This document shows positions 1 to 10,605 of a DNA stretch of 12,202 bases, piece by piece; position 1 is the stretch's first letter, and the number at the start of each line of letters is the position of its first letter. The stretch is from a virus (taxonomy: Duplodnaviria > Heunggongvirae > Uroviricota > Caudoviricetes). Position numbers and translations under genes: made by a program. The stretch lies in the IMG/VR virus record IMGVR_UViG_2703718823_000004; one strand, given 5' to 3'. The notes beneath the pieces were generated by a model. It ran no database searches, was not told where the DNA came from, and was given only the letters and a program-made list of their open reading frames with translations.

Positions 1-720
1 CTTCCCGAAGGCTTCAGCGACTTTATCTACCTCCACACCGGATGCAGACGCAAAACGCGCGACACTCTGGTTAATGGCATCAAACTGTTCACCACCACGC
101 ACACCGGCATTCACCAGGGCTGCCAGTGACTCTCTCGCCTGGTTAAACGTCAGCCCTGCTGCCTGCCCGGCTCTTGAGAGCGTCAGCATACGATCGGCAG
201 TCAGTCCGGCCTGATTGCCGGAAAGGACCAGCGTTTTATTAAATTCTGAAAGCGTGGCGTCGCCCTGGTACCAGGCGTACGCCAGCACACCTGTCGCCAC
301 CGCCAGCGAGGTGACCCCGACCATCGGCAGGGTGATCGCACCGGCAAGCCCCCTGAACATGGGGATCATCCCGCCGAAGGAGTCCTTCACCTGACCACCC
401 TGTTGCAGCAGGATCAGCCAGGGATTCTGACCACCGGCAAGCTGCGTGGCGATATCCGTAAACTGTGCGGGCAGGGTTCGCATGGCCGCTTTATACTGTC
501 CGACGGAAATCCCGGCTTTTTGTGCAGCCAGCGCCTGACGGCTCAGCCCCTGCTCAACAGCAGCGGCCTGTTTCTTAAAAGACTGGCTGACACGCCCGGC
601 CATCAAATCCGCAAGGTCACTGGTTTCACCCAGTTCTTTCTTTACCCGTGCAGCCTCTTCAGAAAAACGGGTTGAATCCAGTGTAAGAACAGCTGTCAGA
701 TCGGCAAAATTACCCGCCAT
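1..720 (-). CDS. H: Tail tape measure protein, gpH-like; N-terminal 240 codons only, 3' end beyond window start
   Basis: ATG at 720-718 preceded by a GGGGG Shine-Dalgarno; frame stays open to position 1. Translation MAGNFADLTAVLTLDSTRFSEEAARVKKELG...AAVEQGLSRQALAAQKAGISVGQYKAAMRTLPAQFTDIATQLAGGQNPWLILLQQGGQVKDSFGGMIPMFRGLAGAITLP matches my memory of the lambda gpH N-terminus. Not in the ORF track because no stop lies inside the window. Confidence 0.9.
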   Translation of the reverse strand, partial: MAGNFADLTAVLTLDSTRFSEEAARVKKELGETSDLADLMAGRVSQSFKKQAAAVEQGLSRQALAAQKAGISVGQYKAAMRTLPAQFTDIATQLAGGQNPWLILLQQGGQVKDSFGGMIPMFRGLAGAITLPMVGVTSLAVATGVLAYAWYQGDATLSEFNKTLVLSGNQAGLTADRMLTLSRAGQAAGLTFNQARESLAALVNAGVRGGEQFDAINQSVARFASASGVEVDKVAEAFGK

Positions 721-811
721 AGCGTACACCCCCTGGAATTCCCTCAGACACCATCATCAGCATGGCTTCATCCTCTGTACTGCTCCGCATGTCATCACTG
801 ACCATAACGAT

Positions 812-1572
812 TTACTTCCCGTCAGCCCCAAAGCGGACACCACCAGAAAGACCTGCCGCTTTCCGCATCAGCATATCGTCCTCATCCGGCATCTCCGTCT
901 GCTCATCATCACGTCGGGATGCCAGCAGACTGAAATCAGAGGGATGCATATCCGGATCGCAAAAAAACAGGCTGAGTACAGCGTACGTCAGCCCGGAAAA
1001 ATGCATATCCAGCTGGGTATCCTGAAAATAATGCGTGCGGTAAAAACGGTGCCAGTCGGCATATTCGGTGGATGTCATCCCGGCAAGCATGGCGCGCCAG
1101 TCGGGTCTCCCCATCTCACGCGCCAGTCTGAGGGCAAAATTCAGCTCGCCGTCGAAGGCTTTCCCGCAGAAAAATCATCATCAGTAAGCGCGTTATTTTT
1201 CGCCACTTCAGTAATATCAGTATCCGGACGAACAGCTTCGATCATCCCGGACAGGCACAACACCACGTCTTCCGCCCGGGCAATGGCATCGGCAGGCCAG
1301 GTGGTGAGCACTTCCTGCTCTATCTTCATCACGGCCTCATTCATTGACGGTGACTGCGTTTTCTGTGGATGGTTATGCCACAGGGACATCGCCACCAGAA
1401 ACGCGCCGGTTCTGACAAGATCTTCCACACTCACCTGCAGGTTGCCGGTGGCTTCAGCCTCTTCTGCCCGCCGTTTCAGGAGGGCAAGATGCTCAATACG
1501 CTGCAGCGCAGACAGCTCCGAAAGCGTGACAGACACACCGTTATATTCAAATTGTTCTGTTTTAAGAAACAT
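812..1572 (-). CDS. T: Tail assembly chaperone G-T fusion made by -1 programmed ribosomal frameshift; the T segment has no start of its own
   Basis: Minus strand reads GCG GGA AAG CCT near the end of G, containing the lambda slippery heptamer G GGA AAG (plus 1159..1165). The -1 frame from there is open to the stop at 812-814 and reads GKAFDGELNFALRLAREMGRPDWRAMLAGMTSTEYADWHRFYRTHYFQDTQLDMHFSGL..., which contains track ORF 812..1114. Confidence 0.8.
1141..1572 (-). CDS. G: Tail assembly chaperone gpG
   Basis: Track ORF 1141..1590 begins at a GTG. The likely start is the ATG at 1572 (MFLKTEQFEYNGVSVTLSELSALQRIEHLAL...), 6 nt after an AGGAGA Shine-Dalgarno, and matches the lambda gpG N-terminus MFLKTE. 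C-terminus ...SAGKPSTAS. Confidence 0.9.
   Translation of the reverse strand: MFLKTEQFEYNGVSVTLSELSALQRIEHLALLKRRAEEAEATGNLQVSVEDLVRTGAFLVAMSLWHNHPQKTQSPSMNEAVMKIEQEVLTTWPADAIARAEDVVLCLSGMIEAVRPDTDITEVAKNNALTDDDFSAGKPSTAS
1159..1165 (-). other. Slippery heptamer G GGA AAG (-1 frameshift site for G-T)
   Basis: Exact heptamer seen 6 codons before the G stop; same position and sequence as the lambda G/T recoding site as I recall it. Confidence 0.8.
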
Positions 1573-2758: not shown

Positions 2759-3388
2759 TCATTTTCTTTTCAGCACCAGGCGTAACTGATGCGTCATGGC
2801 TTTCATCATCTGCACTGGTAATTTTTCCCGGTACATCCGATCCCGTTCACGTTCAAAGGTTTCTGCCAGCGGTCCGGCAGTCGGAATTTTCACCACTTCA
2901 ATCGGCAGACGGTGGCGTTTCGGCCTCCCTTTGCTGTCAGCGCCGGTGGACGATGGTGCCCACGGCATACGCTGCATCACATGCCAGCGTCCGTTAGCCA
3001 GCCGGGTGATAAAGGCGTCCGGGATCCGTCTTTTCCCCACAATCAGCACACTGCCGCCCCCTTTCAGGGCCGCACGCTGTCCTTTCTTTCTCCGTTTTCT
3101 GCGGGAAAGTCGAACGCGGGCCTCCCCCAGTTTGATGGCGGGCAGGTTGCCGGTATTGATGTAAACCTTTGCGTAAACCTTATCCGGTCGTGCCGGACTT
3201 AACCGGATGCGGGCACGGATAAGGCGACGGGGAACGGCCAGCTCCCTGGCAACTGAAGTGGCTGTTTTCGCAATGATGGCCCCCGCCACGCGGTTCAGTG
3301 TCGTGGCAGAGGCCCGGGGAACGGCACGGCGGTCAATTGCATCCAGATTTTTCATGGCCTGCGCCAGACCTTTTATTGCCATACTCAT
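2759..3388 (-). CDS. Z: Tail completion protein gpZ
   Basis: MSMAIKGLAQAMKNL...LNRVAG...VARE...NTGNLPAIKLGEARVRLSRRKRRKKGQRAALKGGGSVLIVGKRRIPDAFITRLANGRWHVMQRM... matches the lambda gpZ pattern (MAIKGL...KLGNARV.LSRRRRRKKGQR...KGGGSVL.VG.RRIPGAF...NGRWHVMQR). The ATG at 3388 overlaps the upstream stop (ATGA); the ATG at 3382 (MAIKGL) has better AGGA spacing and may be the true start. Confidence 0.9.
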   Translation of the reverse strand: MSMAIKGLAQAMKNLDAIDRRAVPRASATTLNRVAGAIIAKTATSVARELAVPRRLIRARIRLSPARPDKVYAKVYINTGNLPAIKLGEARVRLSRRKRRKKGQRAALKGGGSVLIVGKRRIPDAFITRLANGRWHVMQRMPWAPSSTGADSKGRPKRHRLPIEVVKIPTAGPLAETFERERDRMYREKLPVQMMKAMTHQLRLVLKRK

Positions 3389-3666
3389 TCCTGTTCGACA
3401 AAAATCCGGGGTTTACCGTTGTACGTGTCATAACGGGTCACCGTCAGTGTACGGCCCTCAAACACAACAACATCATGACGGGCCGGACGGTACCGGGCTG
3501 AAAACACCACCAGTGACAACTGGCTGCCCGAAAGCGCCCCCATCTCCGCGGACTCTTCCTCCGGCATCACGTCATACACGACGCCGTTAATCTCCGCCTG
3601 TTTGCCCATCACCCGAACGGTCGCCCCGTCCATCCGGCAACACATTCGCGTAAACAGATCAGACAT
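3385..3666 (-). CDS. Putative head-tail joining / head completion protein (lambda FII position)
   Basis: 93-aa ORF whose start and stop are each coupled to the neighbouring gene (8-nt overlap upstream, ATGA downstream). Sits where FII does in lambda, with loose resemblance to it; function assigned mainly by position. Confidence 0.7.
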   Translation of the reverse strand: MSDLFTRMCCRMDGATVRVMGKQAEINGVVYDVMPEEESAEMGALSGSQLSLVVFSARYRPARHDVVVFEGRTLTVTRYDTYNGKPRIFVEQE

Positions 3667-3985
3667 TGATTTTTACCGCCACAGTGGCGCTGTTTGCAGG
3701 AGCATTTTCCCAGGCTACCCCCGCTGCCACCGCACCGTCTGCAGCCAGCTGCACAACCCCGTCCTTCAGATAAACCACCGAGCCGGACTGAATGTCGTCA
3801 GCAGACTGTTTGGGCAGCAGGAACACGCCTTCGGCAAAACCGTCACCTGCATCACCGGCAGGAATATCGGTAATGGCCACGACCACCATACTGCCGACCA
3901 CCACCGCAGCACCGCTCAGGATGGTCTGATCTCCGGCATTCACCAGTTCAATGGTGGTACCGTCCTGTACAAAATTTTTCGCCAT
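3659..3985 (-). CDS. Small Ala/Gly/Val-rich head-associated protein, DUF2190-like (possible capsid decoration protein)
   Basis: 108 aa, MAKNFVQDGTTIELVNAGDQ...GVFLLPKQ...; ATG at 3985 with a GGAGA Shine-Dalgarno. Composition and N-terminal MAKN.VQ.G motif resemble the small DUF2190 proteins I remember next to major capsid genes; family assignment is from memory and unverified. Confidence 0.75.
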   Translation of the reverse strand: MAKNFVQDGTTIELVNAGDQTILSGAAVVVGSMVVVAITDIPAGDAGDGFAEGVFLLPKQSADDIQSGSVVYLKDGVVQLAADGAVAAGVAWENAPANSATVAVKINV

Positions 3986-4001
3986 AATGCTGTTTCTCCG
4001 G

Positions 4002-4025
4002 ACAGCCCCTGTGGGGCTGTTTTTC
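4002..4025 (+). terminator. Hairpin plus T-run; intrinsic-terminator-like on the plus strand
   Basis: ACAGCCCC (4002-4009), loop TGT, GGGGCTGT (4013-4020): a perfect 8-bp stem followed directly by TTTTTC on the plus strand. Confidence 0.5.
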
Positions 4026-4031
4026 AGGCAT

Positions 4032-4050
4032 AAAAAAAGCCCTTTCGGGC
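4032..4050 (-). terminator. Hairpin plus U7; intrinsic-terminator-like on the minus strand just after the capsid gene stop
   Basis: Minus strand reads GCCC-GAAA-GGGC followed by TTTTTTT (complement of plus A 4032-4038), about 20 nt after the capsid stop at 4073-4075. The stem is only 4 bp (GAAA tetraloop), so likely a partial terminator at best. Confidence 0.45.
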
Positions 4051-4072
4051 AGTGATTGTGATAACTCGGTTA

Positions 4073-6097
4073 TCAGGCCACCGACGAACGCACCAGCCCG
4101 CGCCAGTCAAGTGGTGCCACTCCGGCATCAATACGGATTTTTGTGGCAATGCCGTCAGTAGTGAAACCTTCCTGCTGATCAATGTATGGAGTGTCCACAC
4201 CATCCAGCCAGGCCACTTCAATGGTGTCAGTGCCCTGTGCCGCCGCCAGATACCAGGTTTTCGGATCTGCCGCATCAAGACGCGCTTCTGCAATCACCTC
4301 AGCAAAGTTCTGGATGGGGTTAATGACACCGGCGTTTGCATCCGCCCCTTTCACACTGGCCGATTTGATGGTCTGGTTCGCCACCGTCTCCAGTGCCACC
4401 GGTACCAGCATAAAGGCCGGACGGATATTCAGGGCGCGATCGCCTTCTTTCTGCAGGCGCATCATCTGACGGGCCGCATCCAGTCCGGAAACGGAAATCC
4501 CACCGGTGGCAATATTTTTGTGATCGGCATGGAACAGCGCCTTACCGTCTGACAGTTTCGGGTTATCCGTCAGCACCTTGTAAACCAGGTCACCAATCGT
4601 TGCCTTCGCCGCACGCCCCATCTTCATCGGCACGTCCACCAGCATATTCAGATCATCATTGATAATGGCCTGGCGGGTGATGGAGAAAATCTCCCCGTAA
4701 GTGGCCAGTGCAATGGTCTCCTTGCGATCTGAGGTGGTGATGTATTTATACTCCGCCCCCTCACGAACCTGGCGCAGAGAACCAAAACCGCCCATCCCCA
4801 CGCGATACGCTGTTTTGAAGTCTGACAGGCGTCCCTTACGGGTCCACTTCTGGAAGGTTTCTTCTGATTCCTCCCAGCCCTGGATCAGCCCCTTGTTCGA
4901 CACATCCAGCAGAATATTGCCAAAATCAGAGGTGCTGTGCGTCAGCGCCAGCCCGACCATCTGCATGGGGTTATAACTGGCCACCCCAATACCGCGCTCC
5001 GTCAGTGACATGCGAGCCCATTCACGCAGGGTCATCCCGTTATAGGCGTTATCCTTCTCGACATTTTCAAATCCGGCACGGGCCAGCATCGCCTGGCGGA
5101 TCCCGTCCCCCACAAAATTGCCGTTTCCGGCATAAATATGGGCCGGTGTGTTTTTGTTGGTCGGCGAGGACTCCTTGCCCATTTCATTCAGCAGACGTTC
5201 ACGGGCCATTTCCAGCGAACAGTCAGGATCAGCCACACACTGCGCCTGAAGCGCCTGATAGCGACCGCCAAACATGGCAAACAGATCGTTAATGCCTGAC
5301 ATGCGGGCTTTCTGCTCAGCCATAACACGGGCGCGAATGGTCGCCTCATCAGACACTGCCGGTACCGGTGATGGTTCTGTTACCGCCGGTGCAGGGATTG
5401 TCACTGTGGTATCACGCGGGGCACTGTTGTATGGCTGCGTGATCATATTTCGGATGGATTCCGGCATCTTTTTAAATTCCTCTGTACGTTTTGACTGAAT
5501 ACATGCCATTGTCTTAACGGCTGGCGTCACCTGGTCTGCAAATCCGTGTGCCAGACACTCGGCACCGGACATCCAGGTCTCATCCGCCAGCATGGCGGCA
5601 ATTTCATCGGTAGTTTTTCCGGTTTTCTGCGCATATACCGGCACCATAACCGACTCAAGTTTGTCCAGACGTTCGGCATAAGTGCGCATTTTCTCCGCAT
5701 CACCACCGCTGATCCCCCAGGGTTTATGGATCATCATGAAGGCATTTTCCGGCATAATGACCGTGTCACCGGCCATCGCAATCAGGGATGCCATCGAGGC
5801 GGCAACGCCATCCACATACACGGTAATGGCCGCACCGTGATTTTTCAGGGCATTAAAAATGGCGATGCCTTCAAAGACATCGCCACCCGGTGAGTTGATG
5901 TGGAGATTAATGTGGGTGATATCACCCAGGGCATTCATATCGCTGACAAACTGCTTCGCGGTAACTCCCCAGAAACCAATCTCGTCATAAATATAAATAT
6001 CCGCCTCACCCTGACCACCCGCCTGCATCCTGAACCAGGATTTATTCTTCATGCTGGCTGTCGGTGGCCTGCTGACGCTGTTGTTCAGTTCCGGCAC
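4073..6097 (-). CDS. Fused prohead protease (ClpP/S14-like) - scaffold-like linker - major capsid protein (HK97-fold-like)
   Basis: One continuous frame. N-terminal part has ClpP motifs (IYIYDEIGFWG, INSPGGDVFEG, GVAASMASLIAMAGD, MMIHKPWG; compare E. coli ClpP AASMGAFLL and MIHQP). A Pro/Ala/Gln-rich middle follows, then a C-terminal ~400-aa capsid-like domain. Track start 6244 is a GTG about 200 nt inside the portal gene. I place the start at the GTG at 6097, 5 nt after AAGGAGG; the ATG at 6052 (MKNKSWF...) is the alternative. Confidence 0.88.
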   Translation of the reverse strand: MPELNNSVSRPPTASMKNKSWFRMQAGGQGEADIYIYDEIGFWGVTAKQFVSDMNALGDITHINLHINSPGGDVFEGIAIFNALKNHGAAITVYVDGVAASMASLIAMAGDTVIMPENAFMMIHKPWGISGGDAEKMRTYAERLDKLESVMVPVYAQKTGKTTDEIAAMLADETWMSGAECLAHGFADQVTPAVKTMACIQSKRTEEFKKMPESIRNMITQPYNSAPRDTTVTIPAPAVTEPSPVPAVSDEATIRARVMAEQKARMSGINDLFAMFGGRYQALQAQCVADPDCSLEMARERLLNEMGKESSPTNKNTPAHIYAGNGNFVGDGIRQAMLARAGFENVEKDNAYNGMTLREWARMSLTERGIGVASYNPMQMVGLALTHSTSDFGNILLDVSNKGLIQGWEESEETFQKWTRKGRLSDFKTAYRVGMGGFGSLRQVREGAEYKYITTSDRKETIALATYGEIFSITRQAIINDDLNMLVDVPMKMGRAAKATIGDLVYKVLTDNPKLSDGKALFHADHKNIATGGISVSGLDAARQMMRLQKEGDRALNIRPAFMLVPVALETVANQTIKSASVKGADANAGVINPIQNFAEVIAEARLDAADPKTWYLAAAQGTDTIEVAWLDGVDTPYIDQQEGFTTDGIATKIRIDAGVAPLDWRGLVRSSVA

Positions 6098-7544
6098 TGT
6101 TGCCTCCTTTGTCGTTGACGGGGTCAGTATCAAAGACCAGCCCCAGTCTGCTGTTTTCATCAATTTCAGCCTTGCGGCGACGTTTGACCTCATCCGGATT
6201 GCGCCCGCCTGCACGCACCCAGTCAGATTCTGTCGCTGCACCACCCCGGATCTGAATTCTCCAGGCTTCAGCTTCCTTAACCGGGTCGATCCACGGCATC
6301 ACCGGACCGGAATACGTCGCGTTATATAGCGTTTTCATCTCCACATCCGCCGGAATTTTCAGCAGACCTGCCGCAACCACCATATTCAGCCATGTCCGGT
6401 ACACCGGGCGGGTTACCGCGCCAATAAAACAGTCCTGCAGGATCAGGTAACCATCCGTGGACTCGACCAGCTCCTGCCGCTGGGCACTGTAGGTGCCGTT
6501 ATAGTTACGCGCCGCACTGGAAAAACTCAGACGACTGCCAGCTGCCACTGCACGCAACTGGCCGTTGCGGAAAGTTTCAAGGTTGGGATTGGGACGGTCA
6601 GATTTGACCATGCCGATATCCTCGCCCTTGCGCAAATCGTCATAAATAATACCCGGGGTGATATGGACTTCCCGGTTGGTATCTTTGATCCCCGGATCTT
6701 CATAGTCCTGTCCGTCCCCTTTACGGATATACAGTCCCAGCGCCGCGGCAATACGCGCAGCCGTCAGTTCCGCATCCTCATATTCCTTAAGGGCACTGAT
6801 CCGCATCAGCACCCCCGATAACATGGATGAGCCTCGCGTCTGATGCAGACGGCGTATGAACTTCAGGTGGATCATTTTTCCGGCAGCGATTTCTTTCGTA
6901 TCACTCTGCCGACCGCTGACCGGATAATTTTTATAAACCAGATATTTTTTCGGTCTTCCCCACTCATCAAGAAAAACCCCCTGATTCAGCCCGGCGGATT
7001 CATCAGTGCGCATGGGAACAAAATCCGGCTCCATCGCCTCAAGCCAGAATGGCACTCCCGCCGTCCGTTCCAGACCGTTTCCCGCGCCACTGACCATCTG
7101 CGCAAACACTTCACCATCCCGCAGCCAGGTCCGCAGCAGTAAACGTTCAAGCACGGGACGGGTATACTGCCCTGTCACATCCGGACTCACGGACCATTCA
7201 GCCCACAACCGGCGGATATCCGCAGCCAGCTCTGCCGCCATTTCCCCGTTTTTTCGTAATGGCTGAGGCTCCACAATAATTCCCCTGGCACCAATCACCC
7301 GCTCTTCCAGCTTGTCAAACACACCAATCACCAGGTCATGATTGATATCCAGAAAACGGGCCTGCTCCCGCAGGGAAACCGCACCGTATTTACTGAGCTG
7401 ATCAGCAGAGCGATTTTCCCGCCGGGCTTTATGTGTCCGGGTCGGTTTCACCGCCTCATAGGCCATGATTAACGCCCTTGAACGCAGTCTGGCTGCTTTC
7501 CACCCGGGGGAAAACACGCCTATCACATCATCAATAATTGCCAT
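6042..7544 (-). CDS. B: Portal protein, gpB-like
   Basis: 500 aa, ATG at 7544 overlapping the W stop (TAATG). Size, position immediately after terminase and W, and overall similarity to lambda-family portal proteins as I remember them. Confidence 0.92.
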   Translation of the reverse strand: MAIIDDVIGVFSPGWKAARLRSRALIMAYEAVKPTRTHKARRENRSADQLSKYGAVSLREQARFLDINHDLVIGVFDKLEERVIGARGIIVEPQPLRKNGEMAAELAADIRRLWAEWSVSPDVTGQYTRPVLERLLLRTWLRDGEVFAQMVSGAGNGLERTAGVPFWLEAMEPDFVPMRTDESAGLNQGVFLDEWGRPKKYLVYKNYPVSGRQSDTKEIAAGKMIHLKFIRRLHQTRGSSMLSGVLMRISALKEYEDAELTAARIAAALGLYIRKGDGQDYEDPGIKDTNREVHITPGIIYDDLRKGEDIGMVKSDRPNPNLETFRNGQLRAVAAGSRLSFSSAARNYNGTYSAQRQELVESTDGYLILQDCFIGAVTRPVYRTWLNMVVAAGLLKIPADVEMKTLYNATYSGPVMPWIDPVKEAEAWRIQIRGGAATESDWVRAGGRNPDEVKRRRKAEIDENSRLGLVFDTDPVNDKGGNSAGTEQQRQQATDSQHEE

Positions 7545-7780
7545 TAAAACCTCGCCAGTTTAAATCCTGGTTTTCCCCGCCTGCGGCTCACCATCGCGGC
7601 AAGCCTGCGTTCCCACTCCTGACGTCCGGCGCGGATCTGAGAAAGGCTTTCCAGCGTCAGTTGCTGTCCGTTGAAGGTGACAGACTTCCCCTCAAGTACG
7701 GCCATTTCCGCTTCACGGTACCGCTGTATCATTTCTCTGGCTTCTTCTGTGCTCACAACCAGCCTCCTGATGTTATCCAT
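7544..7780 (-). CDS. W: Head-tail joining protein gpW
   Basis: 78 aa, MDNIRRLVVSTEEAREMIQRYREAEMAVLEGKSVTFNGQQLTLESLSQIRAGRQEWERRLAAMVSRRRGKPGFKLARF; the C-terminal RRRGKPGF resembles the lambda gpW C-terminus RRRGPAGF, and it lies between terminase and portal as in lambda. Confidence 0.85.
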   Translation of the reverse strand: MDNIRRLVVSTEEAREMIQRYREAEMAVLEGKSVTFNGQQLTLESLSQIRAGRQEWERRLAAMVSRRRGKPGFKLARF

Positions 7781-9876
7781 GGATTATCTTCCGCACGCTC
7801 CGTCCGCAGTTTTTTCTTCCGGCGACGGCGTTTTTCTGCCCCGGCCGTCAGTTCCGGGGATACCGTTTCACCAGAACACTCCTGCGGGAAGACGAGCCAC
7901 GTTTCCCGCTGTGCCCAGTCCGGTGCGGAGGGCCAGCGGATCTTTTCGTAACCATGCAGAACGGCAAGCGCATCCGCATAAACCAGCAGGTCAAACGCCT
8001 CGTTAGCTCCCCTGCCCGGTTTTCGCCATTTTCCGTCACTGCCGCGCTCTTCATAGGTCAGCTCATCGTAAAACCATCGCCCCAGCCAGTCGGGAAAGTG
8101 GATATAGTTCGGCCCTGGTGTGTCACGCCACAGGGCATTATTTACACGGTCCTTAAACGCATCCGTCTGAACCAGCCACAGCGCGACATCGCCACTGGCT
8201 CTGGCACGGCGGGCACTTCTGCCGGTATTATCCGGGAAGGTACGGTTAATCAGCCTGTCACGGCGAAGTCCATCCCCCTTGAACAGAAACACCCTGTTGC
8301 CCAGTCCGTCACTCCGGCAACGACGCCAGAAACGATAGGCGTTATCTGTCACCCCGGCTTCCCCTCCCGTATCCACCGCCATGGCCATCAGACGCATGCG
8401 CACATCCGGATCAGAAGCCAGCGGCCATGTTTTATGGAACACATCCGTCAGCAACAAATCCCAGTCCTCCGGATATGCCGCCGGATCAACCGGCAGACTT
8501 TCACCGTTGGGACTGCAGCGCAGTGAATGCCGGATGTTATAGCGATCAACAATCCAGCGTTCCCCCTGCTCTCCGTATCCGGTGATCTGCACAACAAAAC
8601 GGCGATTTTTACCGCCCTGTACGTCAACCGTTGCCTCAATAAAACGCACACCATCCGGCACAGATCGCCGGGGAAACGGCTCGGCACGCTGTTCAAGCAG
8701 TTCACTTTTACGCTGTTCCGTGGCTGAACGGGGCAGATAGGGTCGTCCGATATCGGTGTTCACCACCGCTTTCAGGGTCTCTTCACTGCCGGTTCGCTCA
8801 TACTCTTCTTCTGCCGCCAGCAGTTTAAAAATCAGTTGTTCCCAGGTCTGAAACGCCGCGGCCGGCCCCTCCATCCAGAATGACGCAATCCGGGAATTTC
8901 GTGGCGTTCCGGTGATACTGCCGTCCGCCACCGCCCGTTCACCTTCACGAAGCCAGATCCCTTTGTTATTCAGTTCGCGTTTCTGCTCAGGGGCAATCAG
9001 CCCGCGACAATGCGGACACATCAGACGGGCAGCCTGACCGGCAGCCACAAAATCCGGGTTATTCCGGTATCCGGTCATGTTATCCATCACCGGCTGAAAA
9101 TATTCCCCGCAGTGCGGACACGGCCAGTACCACCGGCGGCGGTCTCCCCGGTTATACAGTGACAGGATCCCCGTTGTTGGCGGTGCCTCATGTGCGCCGC
9201 CACAGCGCCATTTGGTGTCAGTGATATCCCGCCCCGGCGAACTCTCGACCAGGGTCATCCCCGAGGACATAAAGGTGGTGGTACGCTTTGATGCCAGGGT
9301 GAAGGCATCCCCTTCCCCGTCCACGTTTTCAGGGAAACGGTCATAATCCGTCAGCGCCACACGACGGTAATCCGAAGAAGAAAATACAGTGATCGACGGC
9401 CAGCCAATCTTCAGGAAGGAGCCGTCAAGAAACATTTTATCGTGGACGTTGTTGTCATTACGGGAAGGACTGAGACGCTTACTGACCTCCGGGCTGTGAC
9501 GAAACGTTCTGGAAAGACGCGTTCTGGAGTGTTCCCGCGCCTTCGTCTCGGTCATTTGCACCACCAGCATATCCGCCGGATCACAGATGATGCCGTACAC
9601 AATCCAGCCGTCAATCAGCCCTTCGGTTTTCCCGGTTCGCGCAGGTCCCACAAACACCACCGCGTCATATTCACGGGCTGATAATGTATTAATGGGGTCA
9701 ATCATATAGGGCGTCAGCGATGACTCCCACGGACCGGAAGTATTGGCTCCCCGTGGTACCCGCATATAACGCCTGATGGCTTCCGCTACTGGTAACCGGC
9801 TGGGCGGGCGAAACAGCGAGGCCACTTCGCGCCAGATATCGGATGCGCGGCTATGGCTCTCGTTCACCTGATTCAC
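7753..9876 (-). CDS. A: Terminase large subunit, gpA-like
   Basis: 707 aa. GTG start at 9876 overlaps the Nu1 stop (minus ATGTGA); lambda A also starts with GTG as I recall. N-terminus MNQVNESHSRASDIWREVASLFRPP parallels lambda MNISNSQVNRLRHFVRAGLRSLFRPEP. Walker A VFVGPARTGKTE; Cys pairs CPHCGEYF...CPHCRG as in the gpA zinc-finger region. Confidence 0.95.
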   Translation of the reverse strand: MNQVNESHSRASDIWREVASLFRPPSRLPVAEAIRRYMRVPRGANTSGPWESSLTPYMIDPINTLSAREYDAVVFVGPARTGKTEGLIDGWIVYGIICDPADMLVVQMTETKAREHSRTRLSRTFRHSPEVSKRLSPSRNDNNVHDKMFLDGSFLKIGWPSITVFSSSDYRRVALTDYDRFPENVDGEGDAFTLASKRTTTFMSSGMTLVESSPGRDITDTKWRCGGAHEAPPTTGILSLYNRGDRRRWYWPCPHCGEYFQPVMDNMTGYRNNPDFVAAGQAARLMCPHCRGLIAPEQKRELNNKGIWLREGERAVADGSITGTPRNSRIASFWMEGPAAAFQTWEQLIFKLLAAEEEYERTGSEETLKAVVNTDIGRPYLPRSATEQRKSELLEQRAEPFPRRSVPDGVRFIEATVDVQGGKNRRFVVQITGYGEQGERWIVDRYNIRHSLRCSPNGESLPVDPAAYPEDWDLLLTDVFHKTWPLASDPDVRMRLMAMAVDTGGEAGVTDNAYRFWRRCRSDGLGNRVFLFKGDGLRRDRLINRTFPDNTGRSARRARASGDVALWLVQTDAFKDRVNNALWRDTPGPNYIHFPDWLGRWFYDELTYEERGSDGKWRKPGRGANEAFDLLVYADALAVLHGYEKIRWPSAPDWAQRETWLVFPQECSGETVSPELTAGAEKRRRRKKKLRTERAEDNPWITSGGWL

Positions 9877-10349
9877 ATATCGGCCTCATCACAACAGTCA
9901 ATGACTGCCTTTTCCAGTGTGTCGCGGATCTCATCAACCACAATCTGTACTTCATTCAGTTGTGATGCGGTCCACCCTCTGTCCCTTTCCAGCCGGTCAG
10001 GCCAGGTTTCCAGTACCTGAACTATCGCTTTCACCACGACAGAAAAGGACCGCCTGACATCACTGACAGGCACAAGCTGAACAGTTTCATGCTGAAATTT
10101 AAGACGCTCGCGCTCGGACTGATACCATGCCTTCCGATCATGTGGGTTCATCTCTTCATCTTCGGAAGTCGGTGGTTTTTCCAGCAACGAAATAATCAAA
10201 TCCGTCAGGAGATACAGTTTTTTCTTTTCATTACTGCCTGGTGCAAGAGGAACATCCGCCATTCTGGCGGCAACAGTCTGCCGGTGCAGACCTGAAAGGG
10301 CTGCCAGTTGATTAATATTTAACTTCATATTTTTCAGCTCGCCGTCCAT
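9873..10349 (-). CDS. nu1: Terminase small subunit, Nu1-like, with N-terminal winged-helix DNA-binding domain
   Basis: 158 aa. ATG at 10349 with a GGAGGG Shine-Dalgarno 5-6 nt upstream. MKLNINQLAALSGLHRQTVAARMADVP resembles lambda Nu1 MEVNKKQLADIFGASIRTIQNWQEQGMPV; acidic C-terminus; directly upstream of and overlapping the large subunit. Confidence 0.88.
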   Translation of the reverse strand: MDGELKNMKLNINQLAALSGLHRQTVAARMADVPLAPGSNEKKKLYLLTDLIISLLEKPPTSEDEEMNPHDRKAWYQSERERLKFQHETVQLVPVSDVRRSFSVVVKAIVQVLETWPDRLERDRGWTASQLNEVQIVVDEIRDTLEKAVIDCCDEADM

Positions 10350-10532
10350 TTACATCCCTCCACATAAACCGCTGAACAAAAGTGGCTCTTTTTTTGTAAA
10401 GAAATGCCGCCATATAAAGATGTCGAACAAAAATCAACCATAATCATCATCTTTTTAATGCTAAACACATTAAAAACAATAAGTTACCATTATGATGATG
10501 ATGACGATAAAATCACAAAAATGCGCCTTTTT

Positions 10533-10549
10533 CCGCGCCGCCCGCCCCG
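10533..10549 (-). other. Candidate cosN (cohesive-end site)
   Basis: Minus strand reads ACACGGGGCGGGCGGCGCGGAAAAAGG, sharing ACGGGGCGG with the lambda cos junction (TTACGGGGCGGCGACCTCGCGGG). It lies about 185 bp upstream of the Nu1 start (lambda: about 190 bp), followed toward Nu1 by AT-rich DNA with repeated GGCG(G)CATTT and ATTTTTGT motifs. Confidence 0.4.
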
Positions 10550-10586
10550 TGTTCAGGCCCACCCCACCAGGAGGACCCGCAAAAAT

Positions 10587-10605
10587 GATAATGATTATCA
10601 TTTTC
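10587..10605. promoter_or_regulatory. Fur-box-like palindrome (18/19 match to GATAATGATAATCATTATC on the minus strand)
   Basis: Plus GATAATGATTATCATTTTC; minus GAAAATGATAATCATTATC. Embedded in a perfect palindrome AAAATGATAAT-G-ATTATCATTTT (10582..10604). Function unproven; could instead be a terminase or other dimer-binding site. Confidence 0.35.

Follow-up and report, generated by a model that had tools for sequence, protein, structure and literature searches.

A ClpP-like protease, a probable scaffold and a major capsid protein in one reading frame of a lambdoid Escherichia coli prophage

Organization of the head gene locus

The DNA analysed here is a stretch of 12,202 nucleotides (hereafter the window), in which an earlier note had described a protease-capsid ORF with no internal stop. 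The frame is indeed uninterrupted, and its strand, which had been left unstated, is the minus strand: the ORF list gives 4073..6097 as a stop-free ORF of 674 aa counted from GTG 6097, while the longest stop-free version of the same frame covers 4073..6244 and gives 723 aa from a GTG. The features surrounding this gene are listed below.

9873..10349: terminase small subunit (Pfam DUF1441; PHROG 141)
7753..9876, minus strand: terminase large subunit of the lambda gpA type (Pfam GpA_ATPase, 2.3e-81; GpA_nuclease, 5.7e-84)
7544..7780: head-tail adaptor (PHROG 118)
6042..7544, minus strand: portal protein of the lambda family (Pfam Phage_portal_2, 6.8e-80; PHROG 21)
6110..6103, minus strand: Shine-Dalgarno sequence AAAGGAGG, within the 3' end of the portal gene, with a 5-nt spacer to GTG 6097
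4073..6097, minus strand: fused gene for prohead protease, scaffold-like segment and major capsid protein, with the stop codon at 4075..4073
4032..4050, minus strand: hairpin GCCC-GAAA-GGGC followed by T7, 22 nt past the stop codon, resembling an intrinsic terminator
3659..3985, minus strand: head decoration ('cement') protein of 108 aa (Pfam Phage_cement_2, 7.7e-18; PHROG 122 'head decoration', 1.1e-38)

The 3' end of the portal gene and the start of the fusion gene overlap by 56 nt, and the decoration gene, whose product shares 53% identity with the one encoded there in Gifsy-2, adjoins the fusion gene directly downstream. The overall gene order (TerS-TerL-adaptor-portal-fusion-decoration-FII-like-Z-U-V-G/T) is that of Gifsy-2, and the order portal-fusion-decoration is common to Gifsy-2, Fels-1, mEp460, mEp213 and F10. 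The hairpin was found by reading the sequence; its stem is too short for the scan tool, whose threshold is 5 bp. At the matching position, mEp460 and mEp213 have annotated rho-independent terminators. A near-consensus Fur box is also present in the window (10587-10605, 1 mismatch, with 0 such sites expected by chance). It was rejected as a conserved regulatory site, the closest relatives having at least 2 mismatches and mEp460 being without it.

Two start codons were considered for the fusion gene. The RefSeq/PGAP call is ATG 6052, which gives 659 aa, and a sequence scan found that AAAGGAGG together with GTG 6097 is the best pair of Shine-Dalgarno sequence and start codon anywhere in the frame. 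In the alignment, the proteins of Gifsy-2 and mEp213 begin 'MPE...' or 'MPK...' in register with GTG 6097, and a conserved 'SW[FY]' motif lies shortly past the portal stop codon, upstream of the later Met24. Since both the register of the MPE/MPK starts and the position of this motif point upstream, the predicted start is GTG 6097 or ATG 6052, and not Met24.

Domain composition of the fusion protein

The reading frame can be divided into five successive regions, all on the minus strand.

5513..6025, minus strand: ClpP-like (peptidase S14 clan) prohead protease domain, aa ~25-195
5797..5795, 5728..5726 and 5581..5579, minus strand: putative catalytic residues Ser101, His124 and Glu173, from profile alignment and conservation
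5438..5512, minus strand: conserved extension after the protease domain, ...MACIQSKRTEEFKKMPESIRNMIT, aa 196-220, block identity 0.65-0.70
5348..5437, minus strand: variable Pro/Ala/Thr/Val-rich linker, aa ~221-250
5138..5347, minus strand: central segment, predicted helical, ...IRARVMAEQKARMSGINDLFAMFGG...CVADPDCSLEMARERLLNEMG..., aa ~251-320, presumed scaffolding or delta-like domain
4076..5137, minus strand: major capsid protein region, aa ~321-674, with the Pfam core at aa 384-671 (4085..4948)

The N-terminal region matches Pfam CLP_protease at 1.5e-36 (aa 45-191) and solved ClpP structures at 5e-23 in a profile comparison, and it scores 220.8 bits against the NCBIfam model NF045542 'head maturation protease, ClpP-related' (cut-off 120); the Pfam scan of the fusion protein returned no match to Peptidase_S78. 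The ClpP relationship proposed in the earlier note is thus borne out by profile search, and both motifs on which it was based are where they were said to be, AASMASL at aa 99-105 (5803..5783) and MMIHKPWG at aa 121-128 (5737..5714). Ser101 and His124 align with the catalytic Ser and His of ClpP, and Glu173 with its catalytic Asp. All three residues are invariant in two alignments, one of 8 diverse and one of 41 closer homologues. The position of the Asp in the ClpP-type Ser-His-Asp triad is thus occupied by an invariant Glu, and the neighbouring D172 is not conserved; judging from these alignments, the catalytic triad may be Ser-His-Glu and not, as in ClpP, Ser-His-Asp.

The extension at aa 196-220 is conserved in both alignments. 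It is followed by the least conserved block of the protein, at aa ~221-250, where identity is 0.37-0.44 compared with 0.6-0.9 elsewhere and where length varies between homologues. The earlier note had described a Pro/Ala/Gln-rich linker; the linker itself and its Pro and Ala content are upheld, whereas a richness in Gln is not, as there are 0-1 Gln per 30-aa window.

The central segment (aa ~251-320) is again conserved in both alignments, with a downstream edge of variable length. C287 and C293 are invariant among the 41 closer homologues, and helices are predicted here even in low-confidence AlphaFold models. Scanned alone against Pfam, the segment gave no family match and matched no described scaffold family, and a scaffold role is therefore assigned from its position; it also rests on the descriptions of Gifsy-2 and MD8 (PMC8508860). 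By this analogy, the linker and the central segment together most likely serve as an internal scaffold, corresponding to the delta domain of HK97 or to lambda Nu3.

The C-terminal region matches Pfam Phage_capsid_4 at 7.4e-56 (aa 384-671) and Mu-like_gpT at 6.8e-10; the Phage_capsid_4 match, like that of the N-terminal region to CLP_protease, is well outside the range of chance. Its profile also matches the solved structures 8rkc/8rkx ('Mu GpT domain-containing protein') at 7e-11 and 9jod ('Major capsid protein') at 1e-8. Two AlphaFold2 runs, one from the single sequence and one from an alignment of 41 homologues (74-96% identical), had a mean pLDDT of ~36 in both cases and were unusable, so that the assignment of ClpP and HK97-like folds comes from sequence profiles only. 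Pfam, PHROGs, NCBIfam and PDB profiles agree with the original proposal that a single ORF carries a ClpP-family serine protease and, beyond a linker or scaffold-like segment, a complete capsid domain.

Family membership and distribution

The whole protein belongs to a described family. Against the NCBIfam model NF045540 ('ClpP-like prohead protease/major capsid protein fusion protein') it reaches 995 bits (cut-off 475), with aa 32-672 aligned to model positions 2-651 of 652, and it matches PHROG 133 at positions 2-667 of 668 with 1142.7 bits. Every residue that is invariant in the family is retained. Eight homologues were aligned whose phages have hosts in five genera of gamma- and alpha-proteobacteria, namely E. 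coli, Salmonella, Providencia, Pseudomonas and Paracoccus. They are 28-77% identical to the prophage protein, and the frame is continuous in 8/8; a Klebsiella phage also carries a full-length match. At least 80% of the fusion gene is covered in one place in 82 phage records. DNA matches to the gene occur in 2070 of 5426 complete E. coli genomes (~38%), a ranking that was sampled from top to bottom and whose weakest row is a 125-bp match only; the sampled records that cover the gene are all annotated by RefSeq as the fusion protein. Positions 3300-7800 of the window are 100% identical in DNA to E. coli NZ_CM129862, and the fusion gene alone is 100% identical to E. coli NZ_CP075852, with the same annotation in both.

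We conclude that the protease-capsid fusion gene is real, intact and already known, and that this head module is the standard one across a very large group of lambdoid prophages. The arrangement is ordinary, because it is described for Gifsy-2 and is found in so large a share of complete E. coli genomes. It had been called atypical for lambda-like heads, which is accurate insofar as the arrangement differs from that of lambda itself but understates how common it is.

Two readings would deny that this is a single gene for a virion protein. One holds that an error of sequencing or assembly, or else a recent frameshift mutation, joined what had been separate genes for the protease and the capsid protein, and it could draw on database entries of 1158-1159 aa in which the neighbouring portal is joined to the fusion gene through indels. 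In those entries, however, the shift of frame falls at differing positions, unlike the junction of protease and capsid, where the linker region is coding-like and aligns in frame. Homologues with two separate genes, which the earlier note had named as evidence against the fusion, were not found among the 82 phage records and the sampled E. coli records, all of which have one continuous frame, nor was any close relative seen with two ORFs split by a one-base difference. Since the frame is also continuous in homologues as distant as those of the five host genera, and since identical DNA is present in independent complete genomes, an artefact is hardly conceivable. The other reading denies the product a place in the virion and makes it a subunit of a cellular, ATP-dependent ClpP-type protease, extended at its C-terminus by an unrelated sequence; it may appeal to the clear similarity to ClpP and to the many database entries named 'Clp protease ClpP'. 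The protein nevertheless reaches 64.5 bits against TIGR00493, whose cut-off is 308.6, and it falls likewise far below the cut-off of all other ClpP models, while the phage head-maturation protease model is scored above its cut-off. With a C-terminal half that belongs to a capsid protein family and a gene placed between the portal and decoration genes, the probability of a cellular ClpP is negligible.

A larger fusion of portal, protease and capsid, suggested by ~10 of the database entries of 1158-1159 aa, was considered and rejected, because each entry changes from the portal frame to the fusion frame at a position of its own. These entries result from independent indels, all within the ~200 nt at the 3' end of the portal gene over which the fusion frame has already opened.

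Comparison with Gifsy-2 and related phages

A 'tripartite capsid gene' of Gifsy-2 was reportedly described by Effantin et al. in Virology in 2010. Its product, STM1034.3n, is 60% identical to the prophage protein end to end, with no large gaps and with the same order of protease, central segment and capsid, which again agrees with the reading of a fusion in one ORF. The flanking genes are alike as well, with a lambda-family terminase and portal upstream and a homologous decoration gene downstream. The two products differ in length by 22 aa, and most of the differences between them fall in three places: the N-terminal leader, the Pro/Ala linker and a variable stretch just ahead of the capsid domain. 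They also differ in host: Gifsy-2 is a Salmonella phage and the gene studied here comes from E. coli. PMC12315714 describes the protease and coat genes of Gifsy-2 as fused and the heads of mEp213/LLS as similar. In the literature, a decorated T=7 capsid and the proteolytic loss of the protease and scaffold part, which yields the mature shell protein, are known for Gifsy-2 only. The Gifsy-2 capsid carries a trimeric decoration protein at its 3-fold axes (PMC8538268), and one study failed to obtain an HK97-fold capsid protein for Gifsy-2 (PMC8814770).

Among lambdoid phages of E. coli, the gene is present at full length and in one frame in CP-1639 (99.4% identical), in several Stx1/Stx2-converting phages (96-99%), in the mEp460/mEp213/LLS group (~75%), and in mEp043 and cdtI. 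There is no substantive difference between these relatives and the prophage, although start calls vary, as do labels ('head maturation protease', 'protease/scaffold', 'major capsid protein'). The same architecture is found further away in Pseudomonas phage F10, with 57% identity across 98% of the protein, and in Psul1, which is 28% identical and has a longer and highly acidic central region. The Pseudomonas MD8/F10 phages and the Paracoccus prophages differ from the present one in their hosts and in their diverged linker and central segments. A single gene for protease, scaffold and major capsid protein, with ClpP-like and Mu-gpT-like parts, has been proposed for the Pseudomonas MD8/F10 phages (PMC8508860), and the same reading has been given for 34% of Paracoccus siphovirus prophages (PMC6536676).

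Comparison with lambda and HK97

In phage lambda, the scaffold gene Nu3 is nested in the gene for the S49 protease, C, and the capsid protein has a gene of its own, E. The prophage follows lambda in both type and order for its gpA-type terminase, its portal and adaptor, and the tail genes Z, U, V and G/T. Two further features resemble lambda, namely a protease placed ahead of the scaffold function and a small decoration gene that adjoins the capsid gene; however, the decoration gene follows the capsid gene in the prophage, and in this the gene order differs from that of lambda. No similarity to lambda E was detectable by hhalign (probability 0.2%), lambda C gave a marginal and unusable hhalign match to the protease region (probability 2.6%), and BLASTP detected no similarity between lambda D and the decoration protein (E = 4.2).

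In HK97, the gp4 protease is encoded by a separate gene and belongs to the unrelated S78 family, and the shell is stabilised by crosslinks and not by a decoration protein. Fusions involving S78 are present in other members of the same capsid clade. The likeness to HK97 is one of concept: here a presumed scaffold segment precedes the capsid domain in the same chain, and in HK97 the delta domain is covalently joined to the capsid protein gp5 at its N-terminus until the prohead protease takes it off (PMC8508860).

Proposed head assembly and alternative readings

Taking these comparisons together, we are highly confident that this ORF encodes the head shell of a lambdoid E. coli prophage of the Gifsy-2 type, and that it is composed of a ClpP-like protease, a probable scaffold and a Mu-gpT/Phage_capsid_4 capsid protein. 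Homology to Gifsy-2, together with general knowledge of HK97 and lambda, makes the following course of assembly, self-cleavage, scaffold action and decoration binding likely. Translation from GTG 6097 (or ATG 6052) would be coupled to that of the overlapping portal gene and would give a full-length precursor of ~74 kDa. Such precursors would together build a procapsid around the portal, their protease and scaffold parts pointing inward, and crowding would then switch on the Ser101/His124 protease, probably with Glu173. The protease is expected to cut once or more in the interval from about aa 220 to 380 and to degrade the N-terminal half, so that roughly 300-350 aa remain as the capsid protein. 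The shell would expand during DNA packaging by the lambda-type terminase, after which the product of 3659..3985 would bind as a decoration or cement protein, with decoration trimers stabilising the expanded shell.

How the precursor is expressed, and whether the prophage still makes use of it, are matters on which other readings have to be weighed. By analogy with lambda, where Nu3 is annotated as made from a start inside C, most subunits could arise from an internal in-frame start, as scaffold plus capsid protein or as capsid protein alone, with the full-length chain in the minority. A conserved Met past the protease domain (M211, in the motif 'EEFxxMP') occurs in 7/8 homologues and is preceded at 9 nt by AGGAG in Gifsy-2 and F10. 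This residue is equally well explained by constraints on the protein, however, and both the PHROG and the NCBIfam families model the full-length product. After aa ~195, 0 internal in-frame starts of the prophage gene have a Shine-Dalgarno match of at least 5 nt, and there is none before M211; the sole internal matches are two 5-nt GGTGA motifs within the protease domain. An in-frame start scan across eight homologous genes likewise found no conserved internal pair of Shine-Dalgarno sequence and start codon. We therefore regard nested expression as very unlikely, and the same low probability applies to its particular form, in which one frame yields a minority of full-length chains and a majority of scaffold-capsid chains started near Met211. 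Were it true, the fusion would set the ratio of protease to shell protein, instead of placing one protease on each subunit. A different doubt concerns the prophage as a whole, which could be defective and non-inducible, either a decaying remnant or only a source of recombination for incoming phages, although the fusion gene is intact. The tail-assembly T frame contains an in-frame stop and is marked as a pseudogene by RefSeq in the identical chromosome, and because of this stop the prophage may not produce virions in spite of its intact head gene; the related VT1-Sakai copy is interrupted by IS629, and the PAN70 copy is annotated as frameshifted. On the other side, every head gene of the window has its full length and scores strongly against its family, and the fusion protein keeps every family-invariant residue. 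We consider a defective prophage rather unlikely, and it would bear on the state of the prophage and not on the identity of the gene.

Significance for annotation

Given that the arrangement was reportedly described in 2010 for Gifsy-2, has its own NCBI family name and is present as DNA in about two fifths of complete E. coli genomes, the locus has little value as a discovery. The family is nonetheless attractive as a minimal system in which to study how self-cleavage is timed when a shell protein brings along both a scaffold and a protease of its own. The practical value lies in annotation, since many database copies still carry no other label than 'Clp protease ClpP' or 'head maturation protease'; such labels mask the major capsid protein, and pipelines that search for capsid genes can miss the fusion gene.

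Domain composition and family of the fusion protein

The gene at 4073..6097 (minus strand) belongs to the Gifsy-2 / NF045540 family of protease-capsid fusions, because its product reaches 995 bits, where the cut-off is 475, with the NCBIfam model NF045540 ('ClpP-like prohead protease/major capsid protein fusion protein'), matches PHROG 133 end to end and shares 60% identity over its entire length with the gene product of Salmonella phage Gifsy-2. It scores far below all of the cellular ClpP family cut-offs. The earlier note had read this region as one stop-free ORF, and this is borne out: the frame is open from 6244 to the stop codon at 4075..4073 (723 codons) and encodes 674 aa from GTG 6097. 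A ClpP-family protease and a capsid domain do reside in the same polypeptide, as Pfam recovers CLP_protease (aa 45-191, 1.5e-36) and Phage_capsid_4 (aa 384-671, 7.4e-56), the latter together with Mu-like_gpT. Both motifs quoted for the protease are present (AASMASL at aa 99-105 and MMIHKPWG at aa 121-128), and the ClpP relationship holds in a profile search, in which a profile of eight homologues retrieves solved structures of ClpP (5e-23). There, the catalytic Ser and His of ClpP are paired with Ser101 and His124, and its catalytic Asp with the invariant Glu173. For the C-terminal 365 aa, a profile search recovers solved Mu-gpT-type capsid proteins (8rkc/8rkx, 7e-11; 9jod, 1e-8).

The two domains are joined by a linker (aa ~221-250) that is the least conserved block of the protein. 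It is real and rich in Pro and Ala as had been proposed, but its composition is Pro/Ala/Thr/Val-rich and not Gln-rich. The following segment (aa ~251-320) is conserved and helical in poor-quality predicted models, and a Pfam scan of it returned no family; we infer that it acts as a scaffold. The abstract of Effantin 2010 reportedly describes a central domain of ~200 residues with a possible scaffolding role.

Gene neighborhood and start codon

The window is filled by a prophage late region transcribed from the minus strand.

Genes of the late region (from the ORF list and Pfam/PHROG)
9873..10349, minus strand, small terminase
7753..9876, minus strand, large terminase of the lambda-gpA type
7544..7780, minus strand, head-tail adaptor
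6042..7544, minus strand, portal of the lambda family
between portal and decoration gene, minus strand, fusion ORF
3659..3985, minus strand, decoration ('cement') protein
beyond the decoration gene, minus strand, FII-like protein, then tail genes Z, U, V and G/T

The decoration protein and the corresponding protein of Gifsy-2 share 53% identity. A hairpin (GCCC-GAAA-GGGC followed by T7; 4032-4050, minus strand) separates the fusion gene from the decoration gene, at the place where terminators are annotated in the E. coli lambdoid phages mEp460 and mEp213, and is followed by a second hairpin of 8 bp without a T tail (~4018..4000).

PGAP places the start of the identical gene at ATG 6052. GTG 6097 lies just downstream of AAAGGAGG, the best ribosome-binding site anywhere in the fusion frame. 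The sequence comparisons favor this upstream start, because it fits the alignment with the Gifsy-2 ('MPEVK…') and mEp213 ('MPKPK…') proteins and because an SW[FY] motif is conserved just 3' of the portal stop codon. A search for a conserved internal start across eight homologous fusion genes found none.

Is the fusion genuine?

If the fusion were an artefact, relatives should carry two separate genes. It survives this comparison, as the frame is unbroken in mEp460, mEp213, Fels-1, Gifsy-2, Providencia PSTCR8lys, Pseudomonas F10 and Paracoccus Psul1, at identities from 77% down to 28%. Chromosomal DNA in NZ_CM129862 is 100% identical to 3300-7800 of the window, and DNA in NZ_CP075852 is 100% identical to the fusion gene itself. 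Phage records matching the fusion protein number 1787, most of them through no more than the protease domain; in 82, a match in one place spans at least 80% of the protein. Matches occur in 2070 of 5426 complete E. coli genomes; among the records checked down the ranking, all those covering the gene annotate a fusion protein, the weakest row examined being a 125-bp match only. The capsid domain alone was also searched against 1.84 billion 50%-identity representatives. Among the best 150 matches, 117 are proteins of at least 600 aa whose C-terminal half holds the capsid match, and 79 of these 117 contain a ClpP-like domain, so that fusion is the rule in this Phage_capsid_4 capsid clade. The observation is confirmed and its interpretation supported, but such fusions have been described before and are very common; the same reading is in print for Pseudomonas MD8/F10 phages (PMC8508860) and Paracoccus prophages (PMC6536676).

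The fusion frame is already open 147 nt upstream of its start, within the portal 3' end (6042-6244). Any single-base indel there joins portal to fusion, which accounts for the roughly ten database 'proteins' of 1158-1159 aa that contain both (P0073-P0092). These do not represent one lineage but independent indels, either errors or mutations, since the frame-switch point differs in all five entries read (P0073, P0074, P0077, P0089 and P0092).

Disrupted copies also occur. In the Stx1 prophage VT1-Sakai of E. coli O157:H7 Sakai (AP000400, 1570-4838), IS629 splits the homologous gene, which is annotated as two unrelated proteins, and the annotation of the copy in Pseudomonas PAN70 gives it as disrupted by a frameshift. 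In one database protein (P0122, 661 aa) the capsid domain occurs together with a GpA_ATPase domain of a terminase; this protein is most likely a deletion or assembly chimera.

Comparison with HK97 and lambda

The fusion protein resembles HK97 in that the scaffold is joined to the capsid protein, and the system resembles lambda in that the protease is joined to the scaffold and a decoration protein is present; by analogy, the gene would work as a combination of the two. The fusion protein has no homology to lambda E and the decoration protein none to lambda D, similarity of the fusion protein to lambda C is only marginal, and the Pfam scan found no S78 protease in the fusion protein. Elsewhere, Phage_capsid_4 is fused to the HK97-type Peptidase_S78 (database proteins P0137, P0138, P0140, P0152, P0169 and P0206) or to the lambda-C-type Peptidase_S49 (P0178, P0243 and P0254), in agreement with the second NCBIfam fusion family, NF045541. 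Across the S78, S49 and ClpP-like capsid fusions, the protease is exchanged and the fused layout retained.

In Gifsy-2 the protease gene is fused to the coat gene (PMC12315714), the capsid is listed as T=7 (PMC8814770) and the 3-fold axes bear a trimeric decoration protein (PMC8538268). By homology with Gifsy-2, a T=7 procapsid would form from the full-length precursor, its interior holding the protease and scaffold parts; the N-terminal half would then be cut off by the protease, and the shell would expand and be decorated by the product of the next gene. The cleavage boundary plausibly lies at the variable-length stretch before 'AHIYAGNGNF' (aa ~310-320).

Candidate cos site and tail region

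A probable cos site (10532-10578, minus strand) lies in a GC-poor gap that separates the Rz-like lysis gene from the gene for the small terminase. GGGTCCT at 10578..10572 resembles lambda cosQ. GGGCGGCGCGGA at 10543..10532 agrees at 10 of 12 bases with the mEp213/LLS cohesive end GGGCGGCGCGCT (PMC12315714). PhiR5_1, a phage with a lambda-type terminase, has the upstream DNA in common and carries lambda's GGGCGGCGACCT at the equivalent place. The nearby palindrome GAAAATGATAATCATTATC (10587-10605) has one mismatch to the Fur-box consensus, with a chance expectation of none. We reject it as a conserved Fur site, since it is degraded (at least two mismatches) in the closest relatives NZ_CM129862, Stx2_95 and PhiR5_1 and is absent from mEp460; it is probably fortuitous or cos-related.

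In the G/T tail assembly chaperone region (710-1165, minus strand) the lambda slippery heptamer GGGAAAG is retained at 1165..1159. The T frame meets an in-frame stop after 100 codons and is a pseudogene according to RefSeq in the identical chromosome; the prophage may be tail-defective.
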